Source of the DNA: an uncultured bacterium | Lineage (GTDB): Bacteria > Oederibacteriota > PGYV01 > CAWJRG01 | Assembly: GCA_963845185.1 (NCBI GenBank) | Contig: CAWJRG010000005.1 | Location: 224,001-288,000, forward strand | Length of the DNA stretch: 64,000 nucleotides | Direction of reading: 5' to 3' | Part shown: piece by piece, positions 8,169 to 56,243 of the stretch | How the letters are laid out: every line of letters starts with the position of its first letter | Numbering within the stretch: the first letter of the stretch is position 1 | Notes under the pieces: generated by a model | What the model saw: the letters and a program-made list of their open reading frames with translations, nothing else | Databases searched by the model: none | What the model was told of the DNA's origin: nothing | Translations under genes and position numbers: made by a program

Positions 8169-8263
8169 GATAGCGTTTATTTTGTCAAGCCAAAGGCAAT
8201 GACAAAATATTACGCTATCTTATACCCGCTCAAGTCCCGAGCTTGCGAGGGACAAGTGGTATA
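8169..8263 (-). repeat. Family A SD-abutting double hairpin (murC leader; overlaps murG 3' end)
   Basis: mRNA sense gatagcg-taa-tattttgtca..tgacaaaata-aa-cgctatc, then AAGGAGA SD; second hairpin gtccc..gggac. Confidence 0.9.
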
Positions 8264-9335
8264 TAATGTCCGTTATTTTTTTTGCTCCGTTTCCTTTATA
8301 CATGCTTTTCAATTTTTTTCTTATTAGGTTGTTTTCCTTTTTATCCAGTATTTTCTTCAGGGCTGTCACCACCGTCTCAGGTGTCAAATCCCTGTCTTTT
8401 ATTATCAGCCCAGCCTGCATTTTTTCAAAAACCGCCGCATTCTTTTCCTGGTGGTTATCGGTAGCATAAGGATACGGCACCAGTATTGCCGGGAATTTAA
8501 GCGCGGCTATTTCCGATAAAGTGCTGGCTCCTGCCCGCATTATTCCCGCGTCCGAAGCCGCATACGCCGAATCTACGTCATGTATAAAATCAAATGCCTT
8601 TATTTGTATTTTTTTATGGCCGGCTGCTGCTTTCTTTACTTCCTTCAAATCCGCCTTGCCGCACATCCATAAAATTTGAATGCCTTTGAGTTCTTTTTCC
8701 ATTGCGCCAATTGCCAAAATAAGCGTTTCGTTTATTTTGTGCGCAGCCCTGCTTCCCGGCATCACCAGTACAGTTTTGTTCGACGGCGACAGTGAAAAGA
8801 CTGCGAGCCCGGCTTTTTTGCTTTTGCCTTTTATGCCAGGTCTCACAGGGTTTCCAACTACAATTGTTTTCTTTCTTGGAAAATATTTAAGCGTTTCTTC
8901 AAAACCTACAGTAATAAAATTCACGAAAACCGAAAGCATTCTGTTTGCTATGCCAGGCACCATGTTCGGCTCGTGTATAAGCGTCCTTTTCTTAAGCAGA
9001 GCCGCCGCAAAAACCACCGGAAAAGACACGAAACCTCCGGTGCCTATCACAAAATCCGGGTTGAATTCCTTCACAATTTTTTTTGCGGCAAATACCGCCT
9101 TTATGTTCAAAAACAGGTTTGTTATATTTTTAAAAAATATTCTCCTGGCAAATGGCCTTGCCGTAACCTCTGCGTATTTGAATCCGTGCTTTAACATGAT
9201 TTCCCTTTCCATGCCATTATCGCTTCCGGCAAAAACAATCTTTGTTTTTTTATTCCTTCTTACCAGTTCTTCTGCTATGGCTATAGCCGGGAATATATGC
9301 CCCCCGGTTCCTCCGCAGGCCAGCATTATTCTCAT
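8220..9335 (-). CDS. murG: MurG glycosyltransferase
   Basis: GGTGGHIFP, HEPN, GNPVR, DNHQEKNA. Confidence 0.97.
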   Translation of the reverse strand: MRIMLACGGTGGHIFPAIAIAEELVRRNKKTKIVFAGSDNGMEREIMLKHGFKYAEVTARPFARRIFFKNITNLFLNIKAVFAAKKIVKEFNPDFVIGTGGFVSFPVVFAAALLKKRTLIHEPNMVPGIANRMLSVFVNFITVGFEETLKYFPRKKTIVVGNPVRPGIKGKSKKAGLAVFSLSPSNKTVLVMPGSRAAHKINETLILAIGAMEKELKGIQILWMCGKADLKEVKKAAAGHKKIQIKAFDFIHDVDSAYAASDAGIMRAGASTLSEIAALKFPAILVPYPYATDNHQEKNAAVFEKMQAGLIIKDRDLTPETVVTALKKILDKKENNLIRKKLKSMYKGNGAKKITDIIYHLSLASSGLERV

Positions 9336-10441
9336 TTTCTCTCTTCGGCGTATAATTTCTTTGAAATGGCCAAAAGAATGCCTATCGCCGTTATTGTGAC
9401 AACCAACGACGATCCTCCGGAACTCAAGAACGGCAGTGTCGTGCCCTTAGGCGGCATGAGACCAATTGCGACTCCCATATTCAAAAACGCCTGAACTATT
9501 ATCATAAACGTAAGGCCAACTGCCGTGAATTTCAGCATCTTGTCCCTTGTATTTCTGGCTATAAGTATGCCCCGCCATAAAATAACAAAGAAAAGCACCA
9601 AAACAAGAGTCGTTCCTAAAAGACCAAGTTCTTCTCCTATTATTGAAAACACATAGTCCGTGTGCGGCGTTGGCAAATAAAGGAATTTTTGCTGGCTTTG
9701 TGTAAGCCCCACCCCGAAAATGCCACCTGACCCTATGGCTATATATGACTGTATGGTTTGGAAACCCATGCCCTGCGGGTCTGACCACGGATTCAATATG
9801 GCCAGTATTCTTTTCATTCTGTAAGGTGATTTAAGTATCAGTATGATAAATGTCAAAACCGCCGCAGGAACCAAAAACAGGAAATAAATAAGCGACATTC
9901 CGGAAATTATATACATAATGAGAAAAAGCATTGTTATAATAAATACCGCTCCAAAATCAGGCTCCAAAATTAGCCCAACCCCTACTATTGCGGTGACGCC
10001 AAGCGCCCTGGTCAATTTTTTCTTATTGTCAATTTTGTCGTTGCTGAACAAGTCGGCGAGGTATAAGACATAAAACAGCTTAATAAGTTCAAACGGCTGG
10101 AAAGGCGGGACAAAAGGCAATTTAAGCCACCTTCTTGCGCCGCCTATTTTCCTTCCCAGTCCGGGTATAAGCGTCATAAAAAGAAGTATCACGGCCACGG
10201 CCATGATCTTCGGTATTGCCTCTTTTAATTTTGCGCTGGACATTCTGTAAAACATCAGTGCAAACAATACTCCGGTTACTGCCCACATGATTTGCCTTTT
10301 CAGAAAAAAAGCGCTGTCTCCTTTGTAATTCTCATATGCAAATACCGAGCTGCTGGAATAAATCATTATAAATCCCAGGAGCAGCATAGCAAATGCATCT
10401 ATGAATAAAACATAGTCAATCTTGTCAAGTTCATTTCTCAT
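9332..10441 (-). CDS. ftsW: SEDS peptidoglycan polymerase FtsW
   Basis: GARRW, FQPFE, LPTPHTDYVFSIIGEELG, LPFLSSGGSS. Confidence 0.96.
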   Translation of the reverse strand: MRNELDKIDYVLFIDAFAMLLLGFIMIYSSSSVFAYENYKGDSAFFLKRQIMWAVTGVLFALMFYRMSSAKLKEAIPKIMAVAVILLFMTLIPGLGRKIGGARRWLKLPFVPPFQPFELIKLFYVLYLADLFSNDKIDNKKKLTRALGVTAIVGVGLILEPDFGAVFIITMLFLIMYIISGMSLIYFLFLVPAAVLTFIILILKSPYRMKRILAILNPWSDPQGMGFQTIQSYIAIGSGGIFGVGLTQSQQKFLYLPTPHTDYVFSIIGEELGLLGTTLVLVLFFVILWRGILIARNTRDKMLKFTAVGLTFMIIVQAFLNMGVAIGLMPPKGTTLPFLSSGGSSLVVTITAIGILLAISKKLYAEERK

Positions 10442-11807
10442 TTTTCATCGCCTTCAGGACATATTTTTTAAACTCATCTCCTCTTTGTGCGTAACTTTTA
10501 TACATGTCAAAGCTCGCGCATCCCGGAGAAAGCAGCACTATCTTTATTCCGGATAACGCCGTTGCCTTTTTAACAACTTCTTCCATAGTGTCTGCGGATA
10601 TAACCTCATATCCTTTTTCAAAAACATCTTTTAATTTTTCCTTATTTTCGCCGAAGACTATTATTTTTTTTACGTATTTCGGCAACACGCTATAAAGCTG
10701 GGTAAAATCCGTATTTTTTTCCCTTCCACCGAGTATAAGGGCAAGATCTTCGTTAAAGGTATCGACGGCTTTTATTACTGCGTCTATGTTCGTGCCTTTT
10801 GAATCGTCATAAAATTTCTTGCCAGCGACTTCTGCCACAAATTCAATCCTGTGGGCTGCTGGCTTGAATCTTTTCACCGTTTCCTCAGTTTTTGCCATGT
10901 CAAGGCCCATTATATCCGCTGTAATTATACACGCCAGGGCGTTTGCGTAATTGTGCCTGCCTATTAAATTCATACCCTCTAATCCGAATAACATTTTTTC
11001 CTTACCGTTTTCTATTTTCATAAAAGCGTTATTTTTTATAAAATATCCCTGTTTTAGTTCTTCATATGCAGAAAAATATATTTTTTCCGGCCCTTTTGCC
11101 ATTGACGTCATTATTCCGGTAAACTTGTCGTCATTGTTAAGTATCAAAAAATCTTTTTCGTCCTGGTATTTGAATATATTCGCCTTTGCCTCGGCATATT
11201 CCTGCATTGAGGCATACCTATCGAGATGGTCGTCTGTTATATTAAGAATTGAGGCTATAAATGGCTTAAAGGATTTTATTGTTTCCAGTTGAAAACTGCT
11301 GACCTCAAGTACGACATACTCGTAGCCCTTGTTATGCCTCACTATTTCGCAGTAAGGTGTGCCAATATTTCCAGCCATTACGACCTTGTCTTTGAGCTGA
11401 TCCTTCAGGATATCATAGGTCAGCATGGTCGCAGTGGTCTTGCCGTTTGTTCCTGTTATTGCTATAACTTTGGATTTGTCATATTGATAAGCGAGTTCTA
11501 TTTCGCCAATCATGTATTTATCATTCCTTTTTGCTGTTTCATACCAGCTGCCGGACAAAGGCACCCCGGGGCTAACTACAATAATGTCGGACTCCACAAC
11601 CGAGCTGTCTTTATGCCCTTCGGTTTCTATGACAACCCCTTTTTTCCCAAGTTCAAGCGCGCTTGCTTCCAGTTTGCTCATCGGTTTCGAGTCGCTTAAG
11701 ACAACCTTTGCAGGATTTTTATCGAGCACAAATTCGCAAGCTGACACGCCGCTCTTGCCTGCGCCCATTATCAAAATATTTTTTTCCTGTATTTCCACGC
11801 GTTCCAA
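10431..11807 (-). CDS. murD: UDP-MurNAc-L-Ala--D-glutamate ligase
   Basis: GTNGKTT, EVSSFQLE, DDSKGTN, LLSPGCASFD. Confidence 0.97.
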   Translation of the reverse strand: MERVEIQEKNILIMGAGKSGVSACEFVLDKNPAKVVLSDSKPMSKLEASALELGKKGVVIETEGHKDSSVVESDIIVVSPGVPLSGSWYETAKRNDKYMIGEIELAYQYDKSKVIAITGTNGKTTATMLTYDILKDQLKDKVVMAGNIGTPYCEIVRHNKGYEYVVLEVSSFQLETIKSFKPFIASILNITDDHLDRYASMQEYAEAKANIFKYQDEKDFLILNNDDKFTGIMTSMAKGPEKIYFSAYEELKQGYFIKNNAFMKIENGKEKMLFGLEGMNLIGRHNYANALACIITADIMGLDMAKTEETVKRFKPAAHRIEFVAEVAGKKFYDDSKGTNIDAVIKAVDTFNEDLALILGGREKNTDFTQLYSVLPKYVKKIIVFGENKEKLKDVFEKGYEVISADTMEEVVKKATALSGIKIVLLSPGCASFDMYKSYAQRGDEFKKYVLKAMKNEK

Positions 11808-11836
11808 ATTTTCACCTCAACAGGTTTTCTTCTCCT

Positions 11837-12922
11837 CTACCTCAATTTTAAAGTACTAAGTGTAAACAACAGTATTATTATGGTAACAATCCAGAACCTT
11901 ATTATTATTTTCGGCTCTGATATGCCTTTTAATTCAAAATGGTGATGCAGCGGAGCCATCATAAAAATTCTTTTCTTGGTAAGTTTAAAAGACGTAACCT
12001 GCAGGATTACCGAAAAAAGCTCTATTACAAAAATACCGCCCACTAAAAGCAAAAGTATTTCCTGCTTTATTAAAACGGATATAGTCCCGATTACACCGCC
12101 AAGCATAAGCGAACCCACATCGCCCATGAAAACTTCAGCCGGGTAAGTGTTAAACCACAAAAATCCTAAAAGAGTGCCTACGAATGCCGAGCATACTACA
12201 GTGATCTCACTGCTTTTTGCCACATATATTAAAAGCAGGTATTCGCTGAGCCTGCTGTTTCCTATTATATAAGCCATAACACCGAATGTTGCGTAAACAA
12301 AAAGAGCTATACCAGCTGCAAGGCCATCCAGGCCGTCTGTTAAATTTACGGCGTTGGACCAACTCGCTATTACAAAAGCAGTAAAAACAACATAAAACCA
12401 CATTGCGAGTGTTATAGGATATTTTATGAATGGTATGCTGATGCAGGTCAGGCATTTAAAACCGCCTTTTTCTAGGAATACATACAGTAAAACAATAATA
12501 AATGCTCCTATAAACTGCAGTATGAGTTTGTTTTGTATTGACAGACCTTTTGTCCCTATTTTTAGTTTTAAATAATCGTCTAAAAATCCTATCAACCCGA
12601 ACCATGCTACCGAAACAAGAATATAATAAGTGTAAGTATCGTCAAATCTGGCCCAGAGCAGCATTGATGTAAAAAAAGCTATGATAATTATGATTCCGCC
12701 CATTGTCGGTGTTCCTTCTTTGGAAAGGTGCTTTTGAGGGCCATCCGGCCTTATGACCTGGCCGACTTTTAACTTTTTTAATTTTTCTATTATATATTTT
12801 CCGGCTATAAGCGTCACCGCAAAAGCCGTTATTGCAGCAAAAGCCGCTCTTACCGATATGTACCTGAAAACATTAAGAAAAGATATGTATACATGCCATT
12901 GATAAACTATATGGTAAAACAT
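11837..12922 (-). CDS. mraY: Phospho-MurNAc-pentapeptide transferase
   Basis: TPTMGG, DDYLK, NLTDGLDGLA, MAPLHHHFE. Confidence 0.97.
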   Translation of the reverse strand: MFYHIVYQWHVYISFLNVFRYISVRAAFAAITAFAVTLIAGKYIIEKLKKLKVGQVIRPDGPQKHLSKEGTPTMGGIIIIIAFFTSMLLWARFDDTYTYYILVSVAWFGLIGFLDDYLKLKIGTKGLSIQNKLILQFIGAFIIVLLYVFLEKGGFKCLTCISIPFIKYPITLAMWFYVVFTAFVIASWSNAVNLTDGLDGLAAGIALFVYATFGVMAYIIGNSRLSEYLLLIYVAKSSEITVVCSAFVGTLLGFLWFNTYPAEVFMGDVGSLMLGGVIGTISVLIKQEILLLLVGGIFVIELFSVILQVTSFKLTKKRIFMMAPLHHHFELKGISEPKIIIRFWIVTIIILLFTLSTLKLR

Positions 12923-12941
12923 CTGGCTGCTGTCTCCTTAT

Positions 12942-12995
12942 AATCCGCTGATTTTGCTTCAATTGTCTTTTGCTGTCGCAAAATCCTGCAGAGTT
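12942..12995 (-). repeat. Degenerate family A hairpin in mraY leader
   Basis: mRNA tctgc-ag-gattttgc..gcaaaatc-a-gcgga immediately before AAGGAGA SD. Confidence 0.6.
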
Positions 12996-13006
12996 TTATC
13001 CGTAAT

Positions 13007-14386
13007 CTATCTGCTTTTTTTTAATCGATCCACGATATATTCGAGTTTATTTGCCCTCGACCCTTTTATAAAAACTGTATCGCCTTTTTTTATTATGTCG
13101 CTTATATCTTTTGCAAGCTTATTTTTATCTTTGTACTTTTTCACCTTGTTGCCGTAAAGCGATCTTTTCTTTGCAAGCATTCCCTGCTCTACGTATTTTG
13201 CATACTTGCCGTAAATCATTGCTTTTTTCACTGGCAGCTCAGCTACGCTTTCGCCTATTTCCCTGTGATACTCCGGCGCGTTTTTTCCGAGTTCAAGCAT
13301 ATCCCCTATTACGACAATAAGAGGTCTGTACTTGTACATCTTGAGCGTGTCGACCGCAGCCCTAAAAGAATCCGGATTGGCGTTATAGCAGTCGTTTATT
13401 ACTAATACACCTTTACTTTTTATGAACTTTTCCTCAAACCTCATAAGGCCGCCCATATTGAATTTCATAAGTGTTTTTTTGATTTCCTGCATACTGACAT
13501 TTAACGTACAGGCAGCTGAAATCGCAGCCGCAATATTGTTTAAGTTATGCATGCCTTTTAATTTTGTCTTTAGACTGTACTTTTTGCCATTATCCGCAAT
13601 TTCAAAAGCAGTTCCGCTTTTTAAAGGTGTCACGCCTGTTATGCGCATATCGGCTTCCGGATTTTGTCCGAATGTTGTAATTTTCCTCGGTTTGAATTTA
13701 TCTTTCAAGCAGCTGAAAAGCATATCGTCCCTGTTTAAAACCATTATGCCGTCTTTTTTTATCCCTGCTTTAATCTCGGCTTTTGCCAACGCTATATCCT
13801 CTAAGCTCTTAAAAAAACCAATATGCGACCTGCCTATATTGGTTATAATTGCCGCGTCTATTTCAAGTATGCTTGCGAGCCTTTTTATTTCGCCTTTGTG
13901 ATTCATACCGAGCTCCAGAACTATTACGCCTGTATCGTCTTTTAATTTAAAAATGGTTGCCGGCATTCCTATATAATTATTGAAGCTCTTCTCGCTTTTG
14001 ACGACTCTGTACTTTGTGGCGAGCAGCGCGGCTGTGATTTCTTTTGTTGTTGTTTTGCCGTTACTGCCGGTTATTGCCACAGTTTTAAGTTTTTTAAATT
14101 TCTTCAAATAATATTCTGCCAGATTTAAAAGCGCACTTTTTGTATTGTTTACGCGCAGTATTCGGCAAGCGGTTTTTATTTCTTTTTCGGCTATTATCAG
14201 GACTGCGCCTTTTGAGGCTGCATCTTTGGCGTATTTGTGCCCGTCTTCCTTATTGCCCTTAATGGCCACAAACACTTCGCCGCTTTTTATTTTCCTGCTG
14301 TCGGTTGAAATGCCGCTTACCTCAAAATCTCTACCGGTGTATTTTCTGCCGAAAAACTTGTATATTTCTTTGATTGTTAGTTTCAT
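13007..14386 (-). CDS. murF: UDP-MurNAc-tripeptide--D-Ala-D-Ala ligase
   Basis: GSNGKTTTKE, ELGMNHKGEI, DCYNANPDS, KGSR. Confidence 0.96.
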   Translation of the reverse strand: MKLTIKEIYKFFGRKYTGRDFEVSGISTDSRKIKSGEVFVAIKGNKEDGHKYAKDAASKGAVLIIAEKEIKTACRILRVNNTKSALLNLAEYYLKKFKKLKTVAITGSNGKTTTKEITAALLATKYRVVKSEKSFNNYIGMPATIFKLKDDTGVIVLELGMNHKGEIKRLASILEIDAAIITNIGRSHIGFFKSLEDIALAKAEIKAGIKKDGIMVLNRDDMLFSCLKDKFKPRKITTFGQNPEADMRITGVTPLKSGTAFEIADNGKKYSLKTKLKGMHNLNNIAAAISAACTLNVSMQEIKKTLMKFNMGGLMRFEEKFIKSKGVLVINDCYNANPDSFRAAVDTLKMYKYRPLIVVIGDMLELGKNAPEYHREIGESVAELPVKKAMIYGKYAKYVEQGMLAKKRSLYGNKVKKYKDKNKLAKDISDIIKKGDTVFIKGSRANKLEYIVDRLKKSR

Positions 14387-19636: not shown

Positions 19637-19686
19637 GTTTGTTTGTCCTTTCCTGCCTGCGGAAAGGACAAAATATTACGCAAATA
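19637..19686 (-). repeat. Degenerate family A hairpin in STAS-gene leader
   Basis: mRNA cg-taa-tattttgtcctttcc..ggaaaggacaaa followed by GGGAGG SD. Confidence 0.6.
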
Positions 19687-21238: not shown

Positions 21239-21242
21239 ATAT

Positions 21243-27425: not shown

Positions 27426-27437
27426 ATAAGCCTCCTT

Positions 27438-27534
27438 AGTAAGCGTTATTTTGCCAAACCGGTTACACCGCAGGCAAAATACTACTCTTACTTGTCCCCA
27501 CTCAAGTCCTTTGCCTGCAAAGGACGAGCGGGAC
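27438..27534 (-). repeat. Family A SD-abutting double hairpin (nifU-like leader)
   Basis: agtaagag-tag-tattttgcc..ggcaaaata-a-cgcttact directly followed by AAGGAGG. Confidence 0.88.
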
Positions 27535-30600: not shown

Positions 30601-32609
30601 GCAGTATATGTACATGTATACGTTGCAGTCACTGTGTAAGAGTATGTCGGCGTATAAGTTCTTGTATATGTAGGCGATGGAGTATTTGTTGGCGAAGCCG
30701 TCCTGGTGTATGTAAAGGTAGGGGTATAAGTCATGGTCGTTATTGGTGTATTTGTGTATGTAGGAGTTGATATAGGAGTTACAGTCGGACTACGTGTGGG
30801 GGTTGGATTGCAAAATACCCCGGTATATACCGAGTTTGAAAAAGTTGAAGAAGAAGAAGAGTCCGAAGCAATCCCGGCTGTATTAGTTATATTCGATCCG
30901 CACAACGCTGTAACCTGTCCCCACCACGTAACCGCCTGTGCCCCGCCGCATGTACTGCCGATTGTCCAGTTTACCAGGTTTCCGGTTTTTGAGCATGCCG
31001 TGCCTCCGCCGCAGCTTATATAACTTACGCCTGTAGGCACAGTGTCAAATATCCTCGGGTTTGTCGCTGCTGTAAGGCTGAACACTTTTAAGTTATCATA
31101 TTCCTGTGGACCTTCATTCGCTTGAAACCCAACCGCGCCAGCTCCTGTAATACTCGAATTCGTAGTTGTTAAGTCCCATCCTGAATATTCGGTGGTACCT
31201 TTTGGCCAGACTTTCATATAAATATTGCTTCCACATACCATCACTTTTATCGTGTACCATGTGTCAAGGTTTATGCTCATTCCATGCGGGCGCGCGGCAG
31301 TAGTCACGACATTCATAGTTGATGTCCCGGCTATGCATGTGTCCAGGCGCAGCATCTGATCGCTCGCGTTTATCCTTGCCATATAGAAATTACTGGAATC
31401 AACCTGACAAAAATGCAGCACAGCGTCCTCATGTGCCGTATTGGTAGATGGTATAAGTGCATCGAATTCATAAATGCCGTCATGAAGCGAAACATTGTTG
31501 TCTATATAGCCGGTATATCCCGAACCTGTTGCAGTTTGTTCCAGATAACCCGGCGTTGCGTCCCATGTGCCGCCAGCAGGATTATTTGTCCATCCCGATG
31601 GAATTGCGCCATCGTCAAAATTCGCAACATCCACCAGTGTCGTGCCTTCGTTATTGTACACCATTGTATATGTGATGGTATCGCCGGTGTTGAGGTTTGT
31701 AGCTGATTCGCTTTTTGATATAGTCAGTCCTGCGGCACCTATTGTAACATTGGCAGTATTTGAATTCGAGCTTGTTATTTCAGTCGCGCTACCAACAGCG
31801 ACATTCGGTATGACAGTACCTGCAGTTCCTGCATTTACCTGGGCAAGGAAAGAAACAGTTCCTTTTACAGGCGAAGTTATATACCCGCTGTTTACAGTCC
31901 ATGAAATATTTTGCCCGGCAGCTGTCCCGCCGTTATAAACCGTCAGTATTGTAAACCTGCTGTCAACAGCGTCTGTTATTTTAAAATTATGCACATTACC
32001 TGCGTCGTAATAAATAGTGAATAACACTTTTGTTCCCACATTTGCAGTTGTACCTTCCGCTACCTTGTATAGATTTATATAAGGTGAAGTTAGCGGTACT
32101 GTAAAAGATACACATCCCTGCTGATCCGCTGTTATGCCGGTAGCTTGTAAATAAACATTGTAGCTGCCCATCGCAACAACAGCGTAATAAGTATCGCCGG
32201 GAATCAAGGTAGTAGGCATTACAAAAGATTTAGAATAGGAATATGTTCCTGCTACTGTAGGTGTCGGCATATCATTACAACCCGATGAAGTTACACATGA
32301 TAAACAGCCATTAGAATAGCTTGGAGTTGGTACAGCACATGCGTCTCCTACCACAACATTCATCTGTGTGCTGCCACCATAACCGGAAGTAATCGGACAT
32401 TGGTTATAGATTGCGATGAAATACATCTCAGGCTCCGGGCCATAACTGCAGGTATAACTCCAATTTAATGTGGTAGTTTGCCCGGGATTTGGATTTGATG
32501 GACCTAAAGATACATTAGTAATTGCTGTAACAGTGGAAAAAACAGGAGTTTTAAACAAAACAATAATAATGAAAGTTATAAAAATAAGTATACTGACTTT
32601 TTTCATCAT
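27660..32609 (-). CDS. Large secreted surface protein: Cys-rich N-domain, DUF11 domains, lectin-like insert, ~830-aa Thr-rich stalk, C-terminal YPNP/FlgD-Ig sorting domain
   Basis: Signal peptide; GDTITYT..DTVPTG; T-x repeats; C-terminal [27 protein letters not shown]. Confidence 0.85.
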
Positions 32610-33000
32610 ATTGTTTAACTATCCTCCGAAAACGTTTTCATTACTAAGTATAACACAATTTTTCAATTTTTCAAGTTGATTATTTTAAATGCTTTTTGAG
32701 ACAATTACAGTATTGGAAAGTTGCGAGTGTTTAATTTTATTAAATCAATTTTGCATTTATATCATTATTAGTATTCCACATACATATTAAAGGTTTTTGG
32801 CAAAATCTATAAAATAAAAAGAGATGGTAAAGAGTAATTAATTTCTGGTGAGGGAGCTAAACTCTTTATCCATCTCTTGATTATTAGACATCTAATAATC
32901 AAAAAAGTTCCGATTATTTTCATTTTTTTTTAATAAACCAACCTCCTGATTATTTGGTTATTACATCCCCCAATATTGTTTTTCTTCACTGCTCCATGTT

Positions 33001-34462: not shown

Positions 34463-34561
34463 CAAGCAAGAGTTTATTTTGCAAACCCGTAGGGTGCAGC
34501 AAAATATTACTCTTGCTTGCACCCGTTCCAGTCCAAGGCGATAGCCGAGGACAAGCGGTGC
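34463..34561 (-). repeat. Family A SD-abutting double hairpin (lemA leader)
   Basis: caagcaagag-taa-tattttgc..gcaaaata-aa-ctcttgcttg running into GGGAGG; second hairpin gtcc..ggac. Confidence 0.92.
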
Positions 34562-37821: not shown

Positions 37822-37890
37822 GAGTTAAGAAGTCCAGTGGACTTCTTAACGGGTAGTCACATCATTTTTTTATAATATAAAAACTACCCT
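37822..37890 (+). mobile_element. Element B (~69 bp double hairpin) inserted in a GTCATTGCGAG-type repeat
   Basis: gttaagaagtcc-agt-ggacttcttaac gggtagt..actaccc; flanks gtcattgcga | aaagtaacgaagca. Confidence 0.7.
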
Positions 37891-46030: not shown

Positions 46031-47209
46031 TTATCCGGAAATTTTGCTTAAAACTTCGCTGATGCTTACTGAATCGCAGTCTCCGTCTTTTTTTTGGAGT
46101 ATTGTTATTTTATTTGGGCCTATCGGCGACCAGCGTTTCGCTGTGCTTGGCCCGAATATCGCGATGACATCCGTAACCAGGGACACTGCATGCATTATAC
46201 CGCTGTCATTGCATACAAACTTGTTAAACCTCTGCGCTGCTGCCATGATTCTTAATATGTCGTTATGCGGAAATATAAAGACGTCCTTGATTCCAGCTAT
46301 AAGCTGTCTGAAAGCTTGTATTTCATCCTGCTCCCCAATGCCGTAAACAACAACTATTTTAGCTTTGAACTTCCTCTGTACTGCTATAATTAAATCCCTG
46401 TAATTTTCCTTTTTCCACCTGTTGTCCTTTTTCTTCAATGTCGGATGCATGCCTATCACAAAGTCCCTGCCTGTTATGCCGCAGTTTTTATAAAAATCCC
46501 TGGCGTGCCCTTTGGATTCTACCGGCAAATCAAACTTCGGCATTGTATTTTTCCCTTTTGCCGTTATTTTTAAGGGTTTTAATAGCAGCATATCTTTAAT
46601 GCTTTCATGTAGGCTATCGTTGTTTAAAGCAATTCCTTTATTGAATATTTTATGGCCCAGCGGGTTTTTTGCGCCTGTTTTTTTATAACCTATCCTTACC
46701 CTGCACTTTGACGCCAGCGTCATGATGGCAGATGTAATTGAAAAAGGGTATGAATGGAAATTGATTGCCACATCGTATTTGCCGGCCATAAGGCGAACCG
46801 CGACTTTCAGAAAGGAAAAAAAGTTTTTGTTGTAGACTATTATTTCGTTGTTTGTGGAGCCACCTTTAAAAAAATTTCTATTATGCTCCCTCCCCGGAGT
46901 GCTATCCATCCCCGCCTCTATCAGCGGGGATTTTCGTGGAGCGGGATTAAAAAATAGCCGCGCAATATCCTCGCCCCTTTTACCTGCTACTATCGTGAGT
47001 TTCGCTTCTTTGCCAAGTTTGTCCTTTAGCATATTTATAGCCGGCACGGCAAGTATAAAATCGCCCAGCCTGTCCGGCCTGAGCACAAGCGCGGAATTTA
47101 TATTTTTTATGTCCGGTACAGGCGCGTTCCCGCCGTCCGGAATAAACATCCCAAGAAGGTTTATAAAACTATTTTTTATGATTTTTTCAATTGCTTTTAC
47201 TGGCTGCAA
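46031..47209 (-). CDS. Glycosyltransferase family 9 (heptosyltransferase-like) with ~30-aa insertion
   Basis: LRPDRLGDFIL, CNDSGIMH, IFGPS..RWSP. Confidence 0.88.
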   Translation of the reverse strand: MQPVKAIEKIIKNSFINLLGMFIPDGGNAPVPDIKNINSALVLRPDRLGDFILAVPAINMLKDKLGKEAKLTIVAGKRGEDIARLFFNPAPRKSPLIEAGMDSTPGREHNRNFFKGGSTNNEIIVYNKNFFSFLKVAVRLMAGKYDVAINFHSYPFSITSAIMTLASKCRVRIGYKKTGAKNPLGHKIFNKGIALNNDSLHESIKDMLLLKPLKITAKGKNTMPKFDLPVESKGHARDFYKNCGITGRDFVIGMHPTLKKKDNRWKKENYRDLIIAVQRKFKAKIVVVYGIGEQDEIQAFRQLIAGIKDVFIFPHNDILRIMAAAQRFNKFVCNDSGIMHAVSLVTDVIAIFGPSTAKRWSPIGPNKITILQKKDGDCDSVSISEVLSKISG

Positions 47210-47258
47210 TTTCTGCTCCCTCTGAATTATCTCCGATTATGTCGGAGGGTTCAAAAAC

Positions 47259-47520: not shown

Positions 47521-47552
47521 CCGCCCACTTTAGTCGGTGGATTAATTAGAAT

Positions 47553-48473
47553 TTAAAAAAATACCGCAAGCGAAAGCTTATGGTCAAATTCGTCCTGAGC
47601 AAGGATGGTTTCTTTTAAAAATGCGTAATCAAGCTGTACTAAAAAATTTGCTATCTGGTATTTTATCCCGCCGCCAAGGGTGTAGTTGGATTCATAACTT
47701 TTTATGTCGTAATACCCGCCTGCCCTGATAAAAAATATTTTTATGAAGGATGCTTCGACGCCGGACCTTAGTGTCACGCCTTCAAACTCGTTTTCCTCAG
47801 CATCGATTGACACCGAAAGCAACTCCGGCAAAGCATCGATTTTAGCGCCTATCTTCATGTCAAGGGGAATCTGCTCCGTTGTTCCCGTTGACCAGTTCAA
47901 AAAGTTTGCCAAATCCTGAAGCATTACTCCAAACTGTACTAAAGGGATCGGCCTTATCATGACTCCTACGTCGCAGCTGATGCCGAAAGCAGGCACGCCC
48001 GAGTTGTTTATTGACAATATTTTTAAATTACCTCCGACAGAAAACCCCTTTGTTAATTCCCGCGCATAAGTAACGAAAAAAGCATTTTCCGTATCCGACA
48101 AAGGCGTAAAAGCCTCGGTATCGGTCTGTCTGCCTTCAATGCCGCTTATTGAAAAATTAATCCAGTTCAGGGCAAAGCTGCCAATCTGCGAAGGATAAAT
48201 TAAATTAAAAAAATTGTACGATCTGTCCTCGGTCATCCATGAAACCATTGTATTAAGTGCCATCTGGTTTATATAAACAGTTGCTGCCGGGTTCCAGTAC
48301 GGCACCGAAGGGTCGTCAGAGTATGCGGTAAAAGCGCTGCCCAGTGCCAGTCCTCTTGCTCCCACACCGGCGCGTAAAAACGGAGCTGCCCCGCCGGCAG
48401 CTCCGGTGATGCCGAAAATACCGTCAGCCAGTAATAATGACACTACAATAGCAGTAAAAATTGTTTTCTTCAA
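47553..48473 (-). CDS. PorV/PorQ-family (FadL-like) outer-membrane barrel
   Basis: PFLRAGVGARGLALGSAFTA..D....YWNPA hatch motif; C-terminal aromatic strand. Confidence 0.82.
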   Translation of the reverse strand: MKKTIFTAIVVSLLLADGIFGITGAAGGAAPFLRAGVGARGLALGSAFTAYSDDPSVPYWNPAATVYINQMALNTMVSWMTEDRSYNFFNLIYPSQIGSFALNWINFSISGIEGRQTDTEAFTPLSDTENAFFVTYARELTKGFSVGGNLKILSINNSGVPAFGISCDVGVMIRPIPLVQFGVMLQDLANFLNWSTGTTEQIPLDMKIGAKIDALPELLSVSIDAEENEFEGVTLRSGVEASFIKIFFIRAGGYYDIKSYESNYTLGGGIKYQIANFLVQLDYAFLKETILAQDEFDHKLSLAVFF

Positions 48474-48526
48474 ATTCGAAACTCCCTTGCTTTCCGTTCA
48501 GAACCGGTTTACGCGTGCATAAAATG

Positions 48527-48557
48527 ATACAGGGCGGGCTTACCGCCCGCCCTGTAT
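48527..48557 (-). terminator. Hairpin (terminator or stabiliser) between FG-GAP cargo gene and PorV-like gene
   Basis: atacagggcgggc-ttacc-gcccgccctgtat. Confidence 0.6.
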
Positions 48558-48587
48558 ATTTGCCGCGTTCTGCCTGCGGCATGGATT

Positions 48588-50258: not shown

Positions 50259-50271
50259 GTTTTTCCTCCTT

Positions 50272-50433
50272 AGAGTCCGTTGATTTTGCTGAGCGTCAAC
50301 AGCGCAAGCAAAATCTTACGGAGTCTTATACCCGCTCCAGTCCCGAACTTGCCAAGAGTCAAATAGTCCAATGGACTATTTGACGGGTAGTTTCCAAAAT
50401 TTATTATCATCTAAAAACTACCCTGAAGCGGTG
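50272..50433 (-). repeat. Family A double hairpin carrying element B (FG-GAP gene leader)
   Basis: tccg-taa-gattttgct..agcaaaatc-aa-cgga next to AAGGAGG SD. Confidence 0.88.
50356..50424 (+). mobile_element. Element B inserted in family A repeat
   Basis: gtcaaatagtcc-aat-ggactatttgac gggtagttt..aaactaccc. Confidence 0.72.
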
Positions 50434-50453
50434 TTCCTACTTTTACTTATATA

Positions 50454-50482
50454 ATTATATATCCTATTATCCTGATTGTCAA
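50454..50482 (-). promoter_or_regulatory. Consensus sigma70 promoter
   Basis: TTGACA (50482-50477), 17 nt, TATAAT (50459-50454). Confidence 0.75.
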
Positions 50483-50542
50483 GACTGTCTAAAAATTTGT
50501 ATTACGTTCCTAAAAGTGATATAAAAATATGTCTATAATAAC

Positions 50543-50576
50543 AAAACCCCGGTTGCTGAAAAACAACCGGGGTTTT
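50543..50576 (-). terminator. Intrinsic terminator
   Basis: aaaaccccggttg..caaccggggtttt downstream of the OMP gene. Confidence 0.85.
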
Positions 50577-50607
50577 ATATTGCGAAAGCTTTAAAAAATA
50601 TGCTTAT

Positions 50608-52068
50608 TTAAAACGCGTACTTTGCCGAAATCTGGGAAGCTATTGAGCCCGGCATTTTCAAGTTCAGGCTGCCGATATTGGCTACAGGAAGCCAGTCCGC
50701 ATTGATTCCGCCTGTAATCGTCGCGTCAATTGTGGCTGCTCCCACTTTGATTGAAACGCCGCCTGACATATTTACGGAATTGTTAAATCCAAAGTCCATT
50801 GTCATTTTTGGCGCCGGATTATGTGTTACCCCGCCGGTGACTGTCTGTGTTTGTTGCAGGCTGACGCTGTTTATCAAGTTCTTGCTCAAGCCGCCTCTTA
50901 CAACCAGCGCGTCATTGAGTTTTCCTTCTGCTGCAACATAAAGCGGTATGCTTACAACCGACATGTCAATTTCCTCATTGTCCACAACTGTGCCAGGATT
51001 TACCAGCGTATACTTGTATGTTTCTTTTGCTGATGCATAATCAATGGCTAATCCCGGAATTAGTGTCACTTTATCATTTAAGGCAAGATTTGACCCAGCG
51101 CCGAAGTTTATTCCGATCAAACTGCGTGTATCGACTTCTTTATCATTGGTATCGAGCGCGCTTGTAAAATTTCCATCGTAAGGAAAATCACCATCAAGCT
51201 GCTGAGTATCTGTTGTCTGCATATTATCAAACGTAAAACCAAGGCCGACAATAATAGGAGCAACAATAGACGCAAGGTTTGCCCTTGCGTTTAATCCAAA
51301 ATCTATACCGGAATTTGATTGTAAGGTTTCCGACTGAAAAAGATCTTTGTTTGCGTAATTAGTATCTGTCCCTTTATTGTTGATCATTGGCAATGAAATT
51401 GAAATGCCTAAATCAACCATATGCACGCTTAAACCCAATCCCAGATTAATTGCCGTTGACCCGTTTGAAAAATTTTCAAGGGTTCCGTTATTGCCCGCCG
51501 GGTTTGTTAAACTGTTTTTTTCGCTCTGGGAACTGTCCGCAAGGCCCAGCATAATGCCTGCCGACATTACTCCCAGCCCAATATCCGGGATCTTCATCCC
51601 ATAAAGCAGCCCATAGGACCTGTCAGGCGTAAGTATTGTGTGCGGGTCCTCCCCAAGATTACTGGTAATAAACCCGGCTCCAAGGCTCATCATATTCGGC
51701 GGCATTAAGAGCGAACCCTTGTAAGGCAGCGCAAATACGCCAATCACGCTTTTCTCAAGACTGAGCGTGATATATCCGCTGTCCGGAGTTGTTACCTGCT
51801 GAATAATTGAAGCGTTAATACCGCCCCCTGTCATTTCGGTATACAGCAAATTAATCGTGCCCATTGTGTCCAGGCTTACCGAAGAATTTGAGTTTACTGC
51901 AATCAGGTCTTTGTAGTTCACTGCCTGGCCAGGAAATGTAGCGATTAAAGAATCATCAGAGCTTACCATCCACGCAGGCACGCCAAGCCCGGCTATTCTT
52001 GAATTCGTCGCAAAAACCATTCCGCAAAAAGCCAAAACAACCGCAATAACCAATAAAGTTTTTTTCAT
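50608..52068 (-). CDS. Putative outer-membrane beta-barrel protein
   Basis: Signal peptide, amphipathic strands, C-terminal SAKYAF; strong SD and own terminator. Confidence 0.72.
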   Translation of the reverse strand: MKKTLLVIAVVLAFCGMVFATNSRIAGLGVPAWMVSSDDSLIATFPGQAVNYKDLIAVNSNSSVSLDTMGTINLLYTEMTGGGINASIIQQVTTPDSGYITLSLEKSVIGVFALPYKGSLLMPPNMMSLGAGFITSNLGEDPHTILTPDRSYGLLYGMKIPDIGLGVMSAGIMLGLADSSQSEKNSLTNPAGNNGTLENFSNGSTAINLGLGLSVHMVDLGISISLPMINNKGTDTNYANKDLFQSETLQSNSGIDFGLNARANLASIVAPIIVGLGFTFDNMQTTDTQQLDGDFPYDGNFTSALDTNDKEVDTRSLIGINFGAGSNLALNDKVTLIPGLAIDYASAKETYKYTLVNPGTVVDNEEIDMSVVSIPLYVAAEGKLNDALVVRGGLSKNLINSVSLQQTQTVTGGVTHNPAPKMTMDFGFNNSVNMSGGVSIKVGAATIDATITGGINADWLPVANIGSLNLKMPGSIASQISAKYAF

Positions 52069-52199
52069 TGTTTCCTCCTTTTGTTTTGAGATAAATTACT
52101 TCAGGTCATTTTCTTTGATTCACACCTCCCTTCATAGCTTTAAATTCCTCTATTCCTTTTGGAATAAAAATATTACTGGCTAAGCCCCAGGGACTTTTA

Positions 52200-53159
52200 T
52201 TACAGCTGCAACTCAAGCGAAAGTATGTGTGTGTTGTCGAAAACACCCACGCCGTTCCAAAAAACCGGCCTGTATGTGTAATTAACTGAAACAATGCCGA
52301 ATTCAAACTGCGTAATGGACAGCCCTACGCCCAGTGATATAAAAGACGGTGATTTTAAATCCAGGTTCAAAGTGTATCCTGCCCTGAGAAAAAATATTTT
52401 TGCTACGCCGTCTTCAAGTCCGAACGCAACCTGGCCGGTGTCGTAAAAATCCTGGATATAATCAACATCCACAAGCAATAAATTATTTTTCTGCAAATCT
52501 ATCTTATAAGCCGCGCCGAGGCGCAGTGTCAGCGGCAGCGGTTCGCTGTCCTTTATCAGCGTTACCGGCATGCCTAAATTCTGGAGCACAGCTCCGAATT
52601 TAAGGTTTGAACCCGGCGGCGTAAGCTGGGCCCCCAGATCAAGAGCGTAAGCCGTAAGAGGATATATGCCGATATTCTCGTAAATTATTTTCAGGTTCAT
52701 TCCCACGTCAATGTTTTTATTGAAATCCCCGGGAAGAAAATAATCAAGCTTCGACGCATAGGTTCCCGCAAGCACAAAATCATAATAATTTACCGGCGCA
52801 TCGGTGGCATTTTCGTTTGATATTGTCGGCATATACCTGTAAACCCCTGAAATGCCCACTTTGCCTTCTACAAAAAAGTTTTCAAGGCTTTGCGCGTACG
52901 ATATATTGTGCACGCCAATATCGGCGAAAGAAAACCAGTACATGTACTGCATTTGTATTTTTGTTATATCGGCAATGCCTGCCGGATTGTAATTTATGGA
53001 TTCGACATCGTTGCCAGCGGCAGTATACGCGCTTCCCATGCCTGTTGCCCTGCCGCCGACCGCGACATTTAAAACGTCCCCTATTGTGGTGCCTGCGGCG
53101 TATATGTTGACGGATATGAGGATGATGGCCATGCCTGCGACTAATGTTTTAACTTTCAT
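52200..53159 (-). CDS. PorV/PorQ-family (FadL-like) outer-membrane barrel
   Basis: LNVAVGGRATGMGSAYTA..D....NYNPAG, LDLG, LPLTLRLG, LRAGY. Confidence 0.83.
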   Translation of the reverse strand: MKVKTLVAGMAIILISVNIYAAGTTIGDVLNVAVGGRATGMGSAYTAAGNDVESINYNPAGIADITKIQMQYMYWFSFADIGVHNISYAQSLENFFVEGKVGISGVYRYMPTISNENATDAPVNYYDFVLAGTYASKLDYFLPGDFNKNIDVGMNLKIIYENIGIYPLTAYALDLGAQLTPPGSNLKFGAVLQNLGMPVTLIKDSEPLPLTLRLGAAYKIDLQKNNLLLVDVDYIQDFYDTGQVAFGLEDGVAKIFFLRAGYTLNLDLKSPSFISLGVGLSITQFEFGIVSVNYTYRPVFWNGVGVFDNTHILSLELQL

Positions 53160-53228
53160 TTAAACTCCTTATCTTTAACTACCCGGTCTTAAGTATTTCA
53201 ATTAAAAATCTAAATTCTAGAATCAAAA

Positions 53229-53918
53229 TTATTTCAGTTTTCTGTAAAGCTTGAATAATTCCTTAAATGCCCTTAATATGACTTTTATCTTCGCGCCGGT
53301 CTGTGCTCCTGCCGTCCGCGGATAATGGTGAACTCCCACTTCCTTTATTTTATAACCCATCTTATTTGCCTTTGCCAGCAGTTCGGTTGAAATCATGGCG
53401 CCCTCAGCCTCAGGCTTTGCCCTGTCTATTATTTCTTTTTTAAAAAGCTTGAAAGCGCAGTCAACATCCCGCACCTTGAAACGGAAAAGCAGCTTAACCA
53501 TGGTGCCCCACGCGAAAGCGTTCAGCTTCCTCATAAAAGAATCTGCCCTTTTTATCCGGTATCCGGCTATGAAATCCGCTTCATTCGTGTATTTAGCGAG
53601 CTCTTTGATTTCATTGACGTCAAACTGCCCGTCGCCGTCGGTAAAAAATACCCATTCCAGCCTTGCGCCGTATAAACCCGATTTAACCGCTGCGCCGTAA
53701 CCCTTGTTTGTTTCGTGGTTTATGACCCTTATTTTGGGGTTTTCCTTTGCGAGCGCTTCGGCTATCTCGCGTGTCCTGTCCTTTGAGCCGTCATTTACAA
53801 CAATAACCTCATAGTCACTGCATATTTCAGAAAGGACTTTCGCTGTTTTTCTTGTGAGTGCCTCTATGTTTGCTTCTTCGTTATGCGCCGGAAAAAACGC
53901 TGAAATCTGCAAGCCCAT
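53229..53918 (-). CDS. GT2 glycosyltransferase (polyprenol-phosphate sugar synthase-like)
   Basis: PAHNEE, VNDGSKD, TDGDGQF, DVDCAFK. Confidence 0.9.
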   Translation of the reverse strand: MGLQISAFFPAHNEEANIEALTRKTAKVLSEICSDYEVIVVNDGSKDRTREIAEALAKENPKIRVINHETNKGYGAAVKSGLYGARLEWVFFTDGDGQFDVNEIKELAKYTNEADFIAGYRIKRADSFMRKLNAFAWGTMVKLLFRFKVRDVDCAFKLFKKEIIDRAKPEAEGAMISTELLAKANKMGYKIKEVGVHHYPRTAGAQTGAKIKVILRAFKELFKLYRKLK

Positions 53919-53952
53919 TATATTTCCACCTTAATTGAAAATTGATAATTAT

Positions 53953-55254
53953 TCACTTTTCTTTCAATATTATACCGCTTACTTCATTCGCAACCCTTAT
54001 GCTGTAGCTCATTCCCCTGTCCTCGGGATACACCTGGCTCATATTCGCTATGTACAGGTTTTTTACCGGCGTCCTGTAATCAAGCTTTATTTTCGAATAT
54101 TCCTTTTCAATCACAGGCTGGCTGAACGGCTCCCTGAACACCCTCCACTCTATAACGTCATTCGGGTCAAACTTGGGATTTATCTGCTTGAGGTACGCAA
54201 AGAAAATTTCCTTAACTTCCTCGTTTGGGGCCTTGTAAAGCGCGTCATCCGTTGACAGGTATTTTCCTAGGTAAATAATCACATTGTTGTTGTAGTGTTC
54301 CTTCGGCATGAAATTTGTATGCTCCACCGCCGCCACAAAAGGCGACTGCCTGTCGCCTATGTTCAGCCAGTATATCTTGCTCAATGATTTTTTTACGGCC
54401 ATGACAAGGTTCAGCGCGCCGTAATACTGGATTTTGCCCAGCCGCTCCATGTAGGCTGTGTCCGGGAATTCCACCATGTGTTTAATAAGAGCCGGCGCGC
54501 AGGTAAGGATGATTTTATCAAACTTGTATTCCCTGCCCCTTGCCTCCAGTCCGACGGCAGTTCCGTTTTCGATGAAAACCCTGTTGCCGGAAACTCCTTT
54601 TAAAATCGATACCCCCTGCTTTATATTGACGGATTCCAGCTCGTCTATGAGCGTTTGGAATCCGTCAAGAATATAGCCCAGGACTTCTTTTGTGCCTCCC
54701 TTTTCGCGCGAAGCAAAGCGCGCATGAATCCTGCCGTAAAGCCAGGCCATTGCGATATCTTTTGCCTTGTCGCCGAACTTCTGCTCAAGCAGAGCCCCCC
54801 ACACGACCTTATATACTTTTTTGCCTATATATTTTTCTATCCATTCTTTTACTGTTATCTTCTCGTATTTTTTCCAGTTTTTTACCCTGGCGAGGTATAC
54901 CGTCATTAACCCGAGCTTTATCCTGCTGATTATAGACAAAGGGGAAAACAGCATCAAGTCCATAGGCGTGGTAAAATTATGAATTTTCCCCTTATAGTAA
55001 AATCCGACTTTTGACTCTATCCACCAGAGTTTGTCGGTAAGTCCTAATTCGTCCACCAGTTTTATGATATCAGTATCGCTTTTAAAAATATGCCGGTAAA
55101 ATTTGTCGAGCCTTGATCCGGCGAGCGTGAAACCCTGCGCAAGTCCGCCAAGCTCAATGTTGGACTCAAAAATAGTTACTTTATGCCCGGCGCCCGAAAG
55201 CCGGTATGCCGCCGTAAGGCCAGCTATGCCTCCTCCGACAATAGCAATATTCAT
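53953..55254 (-). CDS. NAD(P)/FAD-dependent oxidoreductase (amine oxidase / protoporphyrinogen oxidase-like)
   Basis: IVGGGIAGL, LGGLA, C-terminal YPEDRGM. Confidence 0.88.
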   Translation of the reverse strand: MNIAIVGGGIAGLTAAYRLSGAGHKVTIFESNIELGGLAQGFTLAGSRLDKFYRHIFKSDTDIIKLVDELGLTDKLWWIESKVGFYYKGKIHNFTTPMDLMLFSPLSIISRIKLGLMTVYLARVKNWKKYEKITVKEWIEKYIGKKVYKVVWGALLEQKFGDKAKDIAMAWLYGRIHARFASREKGGTKEVLGYILDGFQTLIDELESVNIKQGVSILKGVSGNRVFIENGTAVGLEARGREYKFDKIILTCAPALIKHMVEFPDTAYMERLGKIQYYGALNLVMAVKKSLSKIYWLNIGDRQSPFVAAVEHTNFMPKEHYNNNVIIYLGKYLSTDDALYKAPNEEVKEIFFAYLKQINPKFDPNDVIEWRVFREPFSQPVIEKEYSKIKLDYRTPVKNLYIANMSQVYPEDRGMSYSIRVANEVSGIILKEK

Positions 55255-55388
55255 TATAAATTATGCTCCTCTTTGTTTTGAAATTTGTTGGCTTAGAGAA
55301 GTATATCACAGGAGTTTAGATAGTCAATTGCAAAGATATATTATAAGATTTTCTTTTGGACTTTTATTTTTTTGAACATTTAATTATA

Positions 55389-56069
55389 TTATTTGAGTTT
55401 TAAAGCAGGCTTTTTCCCCAGGATGTAAACCTTTACTTTTTTTCTTCCCCATCTCAACGCCTCAGGCGTGCTGTTATAGCAAAGGTCTATCCTTTTGCCT
55501 TTTATATCTCCCCCTGTATCGCCTGCCCACGCGAAGCCGTACCCGTCCACGTATATCAGCGACCGCAGGGGTATTACCCTGGGGTCCACGGCCGCAATGC
55601 CGTATCTCGCCCTCCAGCCAAGGAATGTAGTGCCTGCCCAGTCAAGCTGTCCCGAATCCGGGTAAGGGTCATAACCTGTGGCTTCCATGGTAAAGACGTC
55701 ATGCATGTAAGTGACCTGCGGCGCGTTTATCGGGCATTTTTTGTCTGATGCGCCCCTTATCAGATAAGCTTCTTCCGGCTTTTTTAATATGCCTGTTTCG
55801 AATTTCTCGGCGCTTTTTAAGATTTTCCCGGCAAAAGAAAATTTCTCCTTTACCGCGTTTTTATATCCTTTCACGCCTTCTTTAATCCATATCAGCCAGC
55901 CCTTCTGCGCGTAATTGCTTTTTCTTTCGTTTACCTTGAATTGTATATATTCCTTTTCCACAGAGGAATATTTATTTATCCCGAAAGAAAAAATTACCCC
56001 CAGGAACCACGCGCAAAAAAGAACCACAGCTGTTATTTTCATTGTTTCAAGGTATTTCCCCGTTGTCAT
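55389..56069 (-). CDS. Membrane-anchored 3D-domain (MltA-like) protein
   Basis: MEATGY, AVDPRVIPL, DTGGDIKGKRIDL, WGRK. Confidence 0.88.
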   Translation of the reverse strand: MTTGKYLETMKITAVVLFCAWFLGVIFSFGINKYSSVEKEYIQFKVNERKSNYAQKGWLIWIKEGVKGYKNAVKEKFSFAGKILKSAEKFETGILKKPEEAYLIRGASDKKCPINAPQVTYMHDVFTMEATGYDPYPDSGQLDWAGTTFLGWRARYGIAAVDPRVIPLRSLIYVDGYGFAWAGDTGGDIKGKRIDLCYNSTPEALRWGRKKVKVYILGKKPALKLK

Positions 56070-56080
56070 TTATATCTCCC

Positions 56081-56243
56081 TGCAAGAGTTTATTTTGCAA
56101 GCCTTCAGGGCGCAGCAAAATATTACTCTTGCATGCACCCGCTCAAGTCCGAGGCCTTCAGGCCGAGAGTCAAATAGTCCAGTGGACTATTTGACGGGTA
56201 GTTTCCGTAAATTATTATCATATAAAACTACCCTAAAGCGGTG
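56081..56243 (-). repeat. Family A double hairpin carrying element B (3D-gene leader)
   Basis: tgcaagag-taa-tattttgc..gcaaaata-aa-ctcttgca directly followed by GGGAGA SD. Confidence 0.92.
56167..56234 (+). mobile_element. Element B inserted in family A repeat
   Basis: gtcaaatagtcc-agt-ggactatttgac gggtagttt..aaactaccc. Confidence 0.72.

Follow-up and report, generated by a model that had tools for sequence, protein, structure and literature searches.

Hairpins that stand directly before Shine-Dalgarno (SD) sequences raise the question of whether a genome carries a family of regulatory RNA leaders or a repeat that spreads into translation starts. This question is posed by a 64,000-nucleotide stretch of the genome of an uncultured bacterium of the phylum Oederibacteriota (contig CAWJRG010000005.1, positions 224,001 to 288,000; hereafter the window), in which a two-hairpin repeat, here named element A, occurs in five clear copies, which share the minus strand with their genes and are each separated from the SD by a gap of 0-2 nt. 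These five copies were reported in the first-pass annotation of the window and all are recovered by a covariance model with scores of 66-100 bits, three of them having belonged to its training set. The annotation had left two origins side by side, a protein-bound leader and a repeat inserting beside SDs. Element A is probably mobile but non-autonomous, inserting 5' of RGGAG, after which selection filters and conserves its copies.

Element A is a ~98-nt two-hairpin repeat without a gene and is present at 159 loci in the 3.5-Mb genome (163 with tighter merging). A profile made from the window copies gave 187 matches in the genome at E<1e-3 and none in the reversed genome. Among the 154 matches with a complete 3' end, an SD and an open reading frame (ORF) of 60 aa or more come next in 96 and another copy in 13, compared with an SD plus ORF at 117 of 3000 random intergenic positions and at 1 of 163 positions on the element's other side; genes were called by a crude ORF rule, which adds noise to these counts. 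Counted per locus, 102 of the 159 have an SD plus ORF by this rule, 16 have an SD-like motif without an ORF, 33 have neither, and the 3' arm is unparsed at eight. Approximately 14 of the 57 rule-negative loci are parser misses by eye, which brings the number that abut an SD to about 116 of 159. The bias of element A toward SD-plus-gene positions is very strong, and the original statement that the hairpins always abut the SD does not hold. A GGAG-type motif begins 0-2 nt past the 3' end in 69 of the 107 parsed copies, and the spacers between SD and ATG behind the element vary. Element A occupies RGGAG at 101 of the 1111 SDs, at 13 of the 843 non-coding sites other than SDs and at 4 of the 6762 within coding sequence, so that occupancy is 6-fold higher at SDs than at other non-coding RGGAG (p 6e-14), and about six copies are located in a TTTTCAATT low-complexity repeat instead of before RGGAG.

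The same sites are found filled and empty. Repeat R, a bulged structured repeat with a GGAG-containing arm, is present in 31 copies genome-wide, one of which lies in the window at about 46830-46950 on the minus strand. Five of the 31 are filled by element A at the same base just 5' of the GGAG, where the insertion duplicated 0-1 base and no gene follows, and because two element subtypes are represented, at least two insertion events have taken place. In the window, murG ends in 13 element-coded residues, element A having replaced the end of the gene, whereas at the murG-murC junction of all five relatives compared the two genes overlap or leave a gap of at most about 30 nt, with no element. 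The stop codon of a long upstream frame lies inside 4 of the 107 parsed copies. Twenty metagenome loci from near relatives gave 18 mappable orthologous sites that are filled there; at these sites the own genome carries element A at eight, a 3'-arm remnant at one (L163), a possible two-end remnant at one (L164) and nothing at eight, and at some of the eight empty sites the upstream DNA is non-syntenic and gain and loss are indistinguishable. One site (L165) is filled in both genomes by different subtypes, and tandem head-to-tail arrays of up to seven units occur. Element A has no terminal inverted repeats and at most one base of target duplication (its boundary carries a one-base ambiguity at each end), which sets it apart from miniature inverted-repeat transposable elements. 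Given that the same sites are filled and empty, element A is likely a non-autonomous mobile element, and these sites, together with the insertion into the last murG codons, bear out the earlier suggestion of a repeat that inserts beside SDs.

Element A has a well-defined fold. A structure alignment of 52 copies (42 from the own genome and 10 from relatives) yields a 31-pair structure in which 92.7% of cells are paired and 21 of the 31 pairs show changes on both sides; none of 500 shuffles scored as high, slid controls were 30-46% paired, and RNAalifold recovered 26 pairs, 19 of them with double changes. Both hairpins have a variable apex; hairpin 1 rises from a 5-bp base and is interrupted by two bulges, and hairpin 2 consists of an outer stem of 8-9 bp and an inner stem of 8 bp with a TAA/AA loop (a 3x2 internal loop) between them. 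The two hairpins, the asymmetric internal loop and the covariation described from the window alone are therefore all found, with the reservation that the copies fall into subtypes and the covariation counts are thus not independent events. Hairpins 1 and 2 abut with 0-2 unpaired bases between them, the innermost junction pair being formed in 24 of 52 copies, and so the ends of element A lie together. A likeness to domain 5 of group II introns was rejected by eye, since the base that would belong to the triad is variable. The mRNA strand is favoured as the folded form by a U-G pair present in 39 of the 42 own copies, whereas the opposite strand is favoured by the two basal pairs, which deviate as A-C 14 times and as G-T twice, the interior stems being balanced, and by the more stable folding of the antisense strand, seen in 71 of 98 copies when RNA parameters are used and in 59 of 98 with DNA parameters. 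Predicted openness of the SD is 0.54 with element A versus 0.50 in controls (p 0.17), and the 20 nt before the SD are predicted to be unpaired at 0.28 with element A versus 0.51 in controls.

Resident copies are old, and they are conserved at their sites. The closest non-tandem copy is 88% identical at the median, and 95% or more is reached in only 4 of 101 copies. When the copies of two genomes are compared, the orthologous copy ranks first or second among 150 own copies in five of six pairs, and 83rd in the sixth (L165). Identity in the five top-ranking pairs is 66/71, 64/70, 69/73, 67/76 and 70/72 (88-97%), and four-fold sites of adjacent genes are identical at 77/184, 88/134, 63/98, 24/31, 48/73, 28/80 and 49/65 (35-77%), in a small sample whose orthologous loci were picked by a conserved-core pattern, which raises identity. 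Because orthologous copies are more alike than adjacent four-fold sites, we infer that resident copies are likely under purifying selection, which, along with the covariation, agrees with the proposal that structure is selected.

The family was followed through related genomes. The covariance model detects it in 12 of 24 genomes of the order, with at least 149 matches in the own genome, 19 in G014 and 1-8 in the others, 150 candidates having been scored per genome. BLAST searches gave no element A in 17 genomes of other orders of the phylum, and a hairpin-1 pattern run on a one-genome-per-species collection (own genome excluded) gave 11 stretches, labelled candidate division FCPU426 or bacterium. 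Among viral sequences the hairpin-1 pattern had no matches and the hairpin-2 pattern had two, which are not significant with the model, and no element A was found in plasmids. On these searches, the family appears to be confined to one order of uncultured bacteria. Placement differs within that order. In four genomes of the family f10, none of 22 loci inspected by eye has an SD and start codon directly behind it and 20 face a convergent gene, most of them adjoining the A-tract of that gene's terminator, where the repeat is antisense; the two full copies of G001 each stand before an SD and ATG. Position 5' of genes, as would be expected of a leader, is therefore not conserved across species (0/22 in f10 versus 2/2 in G001). 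Hairpin-2-like units in G008, G003, G021 and at one G001 locus lie beside tRNA-Leu or gene 3' ends, one of the genes being a ribonucleotide reductase gene (L101:81-181, L105:1501-1642, L109:1501-1587, L007:2008-2146, L008:2254-2352 and L107:1501-1588), and for several of these the tRNA-Leu or gene 3' end is repeated on the far side.

These placements bear on the possibility that element A is a host cis-regulatory RNA leader, acting in protein-bound translational control or as an mRNA stabiliser, that spread because of its function. Such a leader would fit the covariation, the conservation of resident copies, the near-invariant U-G pair on the mRNA strand (39/42), the preference for SDs over other RGGAG, and the one copy that lies wholly between a perfect promoter match and an SD. 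It is an unlikely reading, however, as the genes behind the element are unrelated (metK, atpB, rplC, degP, phoU and toxin-antitoxin pairs), some copies have no gene behind them, the f10 loci lack an SD and start and mostly face a convergent gene, the antisense strand folds equally well or better, and nested insertions break hairpin 1 or hairpin 2 at many of the 37 loci that carry a nested repeat. A scan of 37 downstream genes at E<=1e-40 assigned 15, which also include an RND adaptor and a sulfhydrylase, and lipoprotein paralogues and toxin-antitoxin genes are further represented; no functional coherence of the kind that marks a regulon was found among them, and the description of the genes as mostly envelope-related is not borne out. 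The genes show no preference for an MK[KR] N-terminus (17/99 versus 168/980), and upstream of element A in the own genome there is no fixed -10 spacing, the element carrying no promoter. The idea of a protein-bound regulatory leader of envelope genes accordingly finds no support, in view of the unrelated genes, the gene-less GGAG copies, the antisense placement in relatives and an mRNA strand that is not the better-folding one. The first-pass remark that the hairpins are not recognisable as a known riboswitch agrees with the Rfam search of the window, which gave no match at the gathering score, and E-value scans gave sub-threshold hits only.

One orthologous site, between radC and a TPR gene, has kept the element in four genomes with outer stems that differ and yet remain compensated. 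This site could be taken to indicate that element A began as a stand-alone small RNA gene, which was copied in the present lineage by ordinary recombination and kept only where harmless, and the copies of one family do run antisense to the genes on either side, preceded by an AT-rich stretch and followed by a terminator. We regard this origin as very unlikely, given that loose recombination followed by filtering does not explain base-precise landing before GGAG, including in a gene-less repeat, and that no -10 position is fixed upstream of the copies in the own genome.

Some copies of element A are themselves invaded. The first-pass annotation missed that the extra length of two window copies is a separate nested repeat, element B, which is the reason that these copies are long. 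Element B is ~65 nt in length and comprises two abutting hairpins; 59 matches, some of which are one palindrome matched on both strands, correspond to about 50 sites, and 38 near-full copies lie in or beside element A; 37 of the A loci bear B. It occupies many positions, in both hairpins of element A and in two other palindromic repeats, and is followed by a T in 41 of 44 full copies. At L154 and L162, element A lacks B in the relative and contains it in the own genome, so B arrived after A, and among 99 genomes of the phylum B is found only in the own genome. Further hairpin modules join in chains. A variant composite, in which hairpin 2 is mirrored and a short hairpin is added, is chained to further A modules in the own genome (G000) at C9:17948, C9:137908, C9:934960, C5:740381, C5:749326, C10:122653 and C10:695752.

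As a mobile element without a gene, element A would insert just 5' of the ribosome-binding site (RBS) motif RGGAG, probably as a folded single strand and with an enzyme supplied in trans. A single-strand cut-and-rejoin reaction of the HUH/Y1 type, as for IS200/IS605-derived palindrome-associated transposable elements (PATEs) and repetitive extragenic palindromes (REPs), could excise and insert it. This enzyme class is put forward tentatively and by analogy, because element A has no inverted repeats or duplications, juxtaposed ends, an external target motif, a nesting like that of PATEs and SMR-A repeats, and bulged stems of the REP type. Insertion would read RGGAG and selection would remove most copies that land in genes, after which the resident copies would likely be kept folded by selection. 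In the mRNA, a copy would give rise to a stem-loop, 5' or intercistronic, that pairs the 20 nt before the SD and leaves the SD itself open, and it may alter mRNA stability or translation as a side effect.

The genome and its relatives were searched for a mobilising enzyme. Searches by tblastn with proteins of relatives revealed two intact ORFs in the own genome for HUH proteins resembling REP-associated tyrosine transposases (RAYTs), plus one further match, and the zero result of a genome search with the Pfam Y1_Tnp model is thus a false negative. A GIY-YIG search gave two matches, of which the locus L143 is without an element A model match; 12 IS110 loci and one reverse transcriptase (RT) locus likewise have no element A model match, and an IS91 transposase search gave no matches, its control being likewise silent. 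Multi-copy elements that, from their proteins, we take to be IS1182-, IS1380- and IS3-like, and others that are IS110-like, were rejected as parents, their ends being unlike those of element A. A 475-aa transposase element centred in palindromic repeats (G000 C1:191795-193457 and 14 further copies) and an IS110 element inside another palindromic repeat (G000 C5:335571-336901 and four further copies) were observed along the way. A hairpin-1-only and a hairpin-2-only unit 1.3 kb apart were also rejected as a parent, as they enclose a membrane protein, presumably a desaturase, and not a transposase. A leading-strand bias of element A is weak (87/895 versus 5/129, p 0.03).

A different route would lead through RNA, with an RT, such as that of a group II intron that homes to start codons, copying the folded RNA into translation-start sites. 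Such an intron is present: six RT-bearing copies and one ORF-less copy sit after the ATGA of start codons at SD-ATG sites, each of the six full copies bringing at its end an SD and an in-frame ATG for the host gene, and two of the seven lie behind an element A copy. The intron copies are located at G000 C9:699945, C9:813058, C9:846898, C10:831397, C10:385202, C11:63428 and C1:269878. The preference of element A for true SDs and the occurrence of 5'-truncated copies would suit this route as well, and the intron resembles element A in being a mobile element that lands at translation starts. It differs in being an RT-bearing ribozyme of 1.9 kb that inserts after ATGA, whereas element A is 0.1 kb in length, lies before the SD and has no intron domains (there is no Rfam match). 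Furthermore, the intron does not follow element A across genomes, its RT scoring above cut-off in a single genome of 24 and being absent from G014, where there are 19 element A copies, and at least one 5'-truncated copy (L163) faces a full copy in a relative and so decayed in place. Spread by RNA is therefore unlikely as well.

Several observations weigh against the insertion of a mobile element as proposed here. No parent element or mobilising enzyme of element A was found, the own genome has no TnpB, none of 30 Y1 loci of relatives carries element A, and no guide sequence that would explain the RGGAG target was seen by eye. The two RAYT-like ORFs are 8 and 18 kb from the nearest element A copy, and one of them is flanked by unrelated palindromes. 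Since SDs are occupied so much more often than other non-coding RGGAG, sequence alone is insufficient for targeting, and about a quarter of the loci have no SD plus gene behind them. There has been no recent burst, the four copies at 95% identity or more having the appearance of duplications with their flanks, and some of the apparently empty orthologous sites may be losses, as L163 and L164 illustrate. The evidence for the folded strand is mixed, and the covariation might partly stem from hairpin-templated repair or from descent from few subtypes.

Among described repeats, element A would, by analogy, work most like a PATE- or REP-type element and sit like REP2 of Neisseria. PATEs are IS200/IS605-derived, lack terminal inverted repeats and target duplications, use a short external target and harbour smaller repeats in their palindromes (PMC3119063). 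Element A resembles them in lacking genes, terminal inverted repeats and target duplication and in having a palindrome close to each end, heterogeneous copies and a short conserved target outside one end (of the GGAG type in the 69 of 107 copies noted above), and element B inserts in its palindromes as SMR-A repeats insert in those of PATEs (PMC3119063). It differs in that its hairpins reach the very ends, its target is the SD motif, and no IS200/IS605 element with matching ends was found for it, either through TnpB in the own genome or at the 30 Y1 loci of relatives. REPs and the mosaic elements built from them (BIMEs), which are mobilised by RAYTs (TnpA-REP), show bulged stems, variable loops, tandem arrays and modular reshuffling (PMC8266576), and element A is similar in all of these. 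On the 5' side of the inner stem of hairpin 2, element A has GTAA, and GTAG in 3 of 102 copies, where REPs have a GTAG tag; the T that follows element B in 41 of 44 full copies comes close to the CT cut site of REPs (PMC8266576). Unlike REPs, element A is longer, has two unlike hairpins and a polar placement 5' of genes, and flanks no RAYT. REP2 and the IR-A and IR-B repeats of Borrelia are multi-copy repeats of 120-180 bp with two stem-loops, no terminal inverted repeats and a position directly upstream of genes (PMC3184786), as is broadly the case here. REP2 has its own promoter, RBS and ATG and 23-26 copies at co-regulated genes (PMC3184786), whereas element A, compared by description only, has neither promoter nor ATG, ends at the SD of the host and is found at about 160 loci before unrelated genes. 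Each of the three has a defining feature that was not found for element A, namely ends matching those of IS200/IS605, a cognate RAYT, and a promoter, RBS and ATG within the element, respectively.

A further system with bulged hairpins is the attC site of integrons, and the arrangement of a 20-kb island, in which element A copies alternate with small genes and toxin-antitoxin pairs, could evoke recombination sites of a gene-cassette system. The island (L018, G000 C9:669000-688999) holds dense element A copies between Fic/Doc, ParE and AbiE toxin-antitoxin pairs and lipoprotein paralogues. This reading is highly improbable and largely refuted: copies lie inside murG-murC and rpsJ-rplC, the core motifs of attC are absent from the ends of element A, which counts against such a role, and three tyrosine-recombinase domains, catalytic-domain fragments only, score 84-126 bits with the model for integron integrases, whose cut-off is 265, two of them being best matched as XerC/XerD. 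No integron integrase was found in 24 genomes at E 1e-60, a threshold at which control genomes were likewise silent. A CRISPR-like array beside a tyrosine recombinase gene was seen at G000 C8: about 31400-32800, with a copy of A plus B ~0.5 kb away.

Table. Features of the window, and two RAYT-like ORFs elsewhere in the own genome (G000).
Feature	Position	Strand	Remark
murC	6784..8154	-	downstream of the copy at 8167..8262
Element A, full copy	8167..8262	-	before murC SD; holds the last 13 codons and stop of murG
murG	8220..9335	-	frame enters element A, stop at 8220
Degenerate remnant, hairpin 2 only	12937..13009	-	before mraY SD; 19 bits, E 0.01
Possible hairpin-2 remnant, doubtful	19637..19686	-	before SD of STAS gene; no model match, pattern only
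Element A, full copy	27437..27534	-	before SD of 76-aa NifU-domain gene
Element A, full copy	34464..34561	-	before lemA SD
Element B	37824..37889	-	inside an unrelated palindromic repeat, without surrounding A
Element A with B in hairpin 1	50271..50434	-	before SD of FG-GAP gene
Nested element B	50358..50423	-	two abutting hairpins
Sigma70-type promoter match	50454..50482	-	12/12; FG-GAP gene's own, outside element A
Element A with B in hairpin 1	56081..56244	-	before SD of 3D-domain gene
Nested element B	56169..56233	-	
RAYT-like HUH ORF	G000 C1:234059-234532		flanked by GTAG palindromes, one interrupted by a 1.65-kb insertion sequence
RAYT-like HUH ORF	G000 C5:416791-417399		

Two degenerate copies had also been proposed for the window. 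The one before mraY is weakly supported by the covariance model, which finds none before the STAS gene. Both sites fit a hairpin-2-only pattern that has one other match outside known copies and none in the reversed genome, the pattern having been written with these two sites already known. The perfect sigma70 promoter described upstream of the FG-GAP gene is confirmed as a sequence match, and both of its hexamers are also present upstream of the orthologous copy L154.

Element A is likely a small gene-less mobile repeat with an unusual landing site, and in the open-access literature, as far as its texts were available, no small mobile repeat that lands directly 5' of SDs was found. A bolder and rather unlikely version holds that element A is a self-spreading, rod-like element with juxtaposed ends that inserts and excises precisely at RBSs, has taken ~9% of RGGAG-type starts, is maintained by selection as a plug-in control that acts on translation or mRNA processing throughout the genome, and has switched its landing rule between lineages. 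If this were true, the switch in landing, with SDs in the present genome, terminator tails in one family and tRNA or gene 3' ends elsewhere, would argue for a mobilising enzyme of an undescribed kind. An enzyme capable of precise, duplication-free insertion before RGGAG would serve as a useful tool. The filled and empty orthologous sites, together with the lineage-specific change in landing, make targeting and domestication testable. For the organism, element A would represent a natural case of structured 5' leaders arising in bulk, in which the translation starts of essential operons are targeted and the repeat is tolerated and then conserved.

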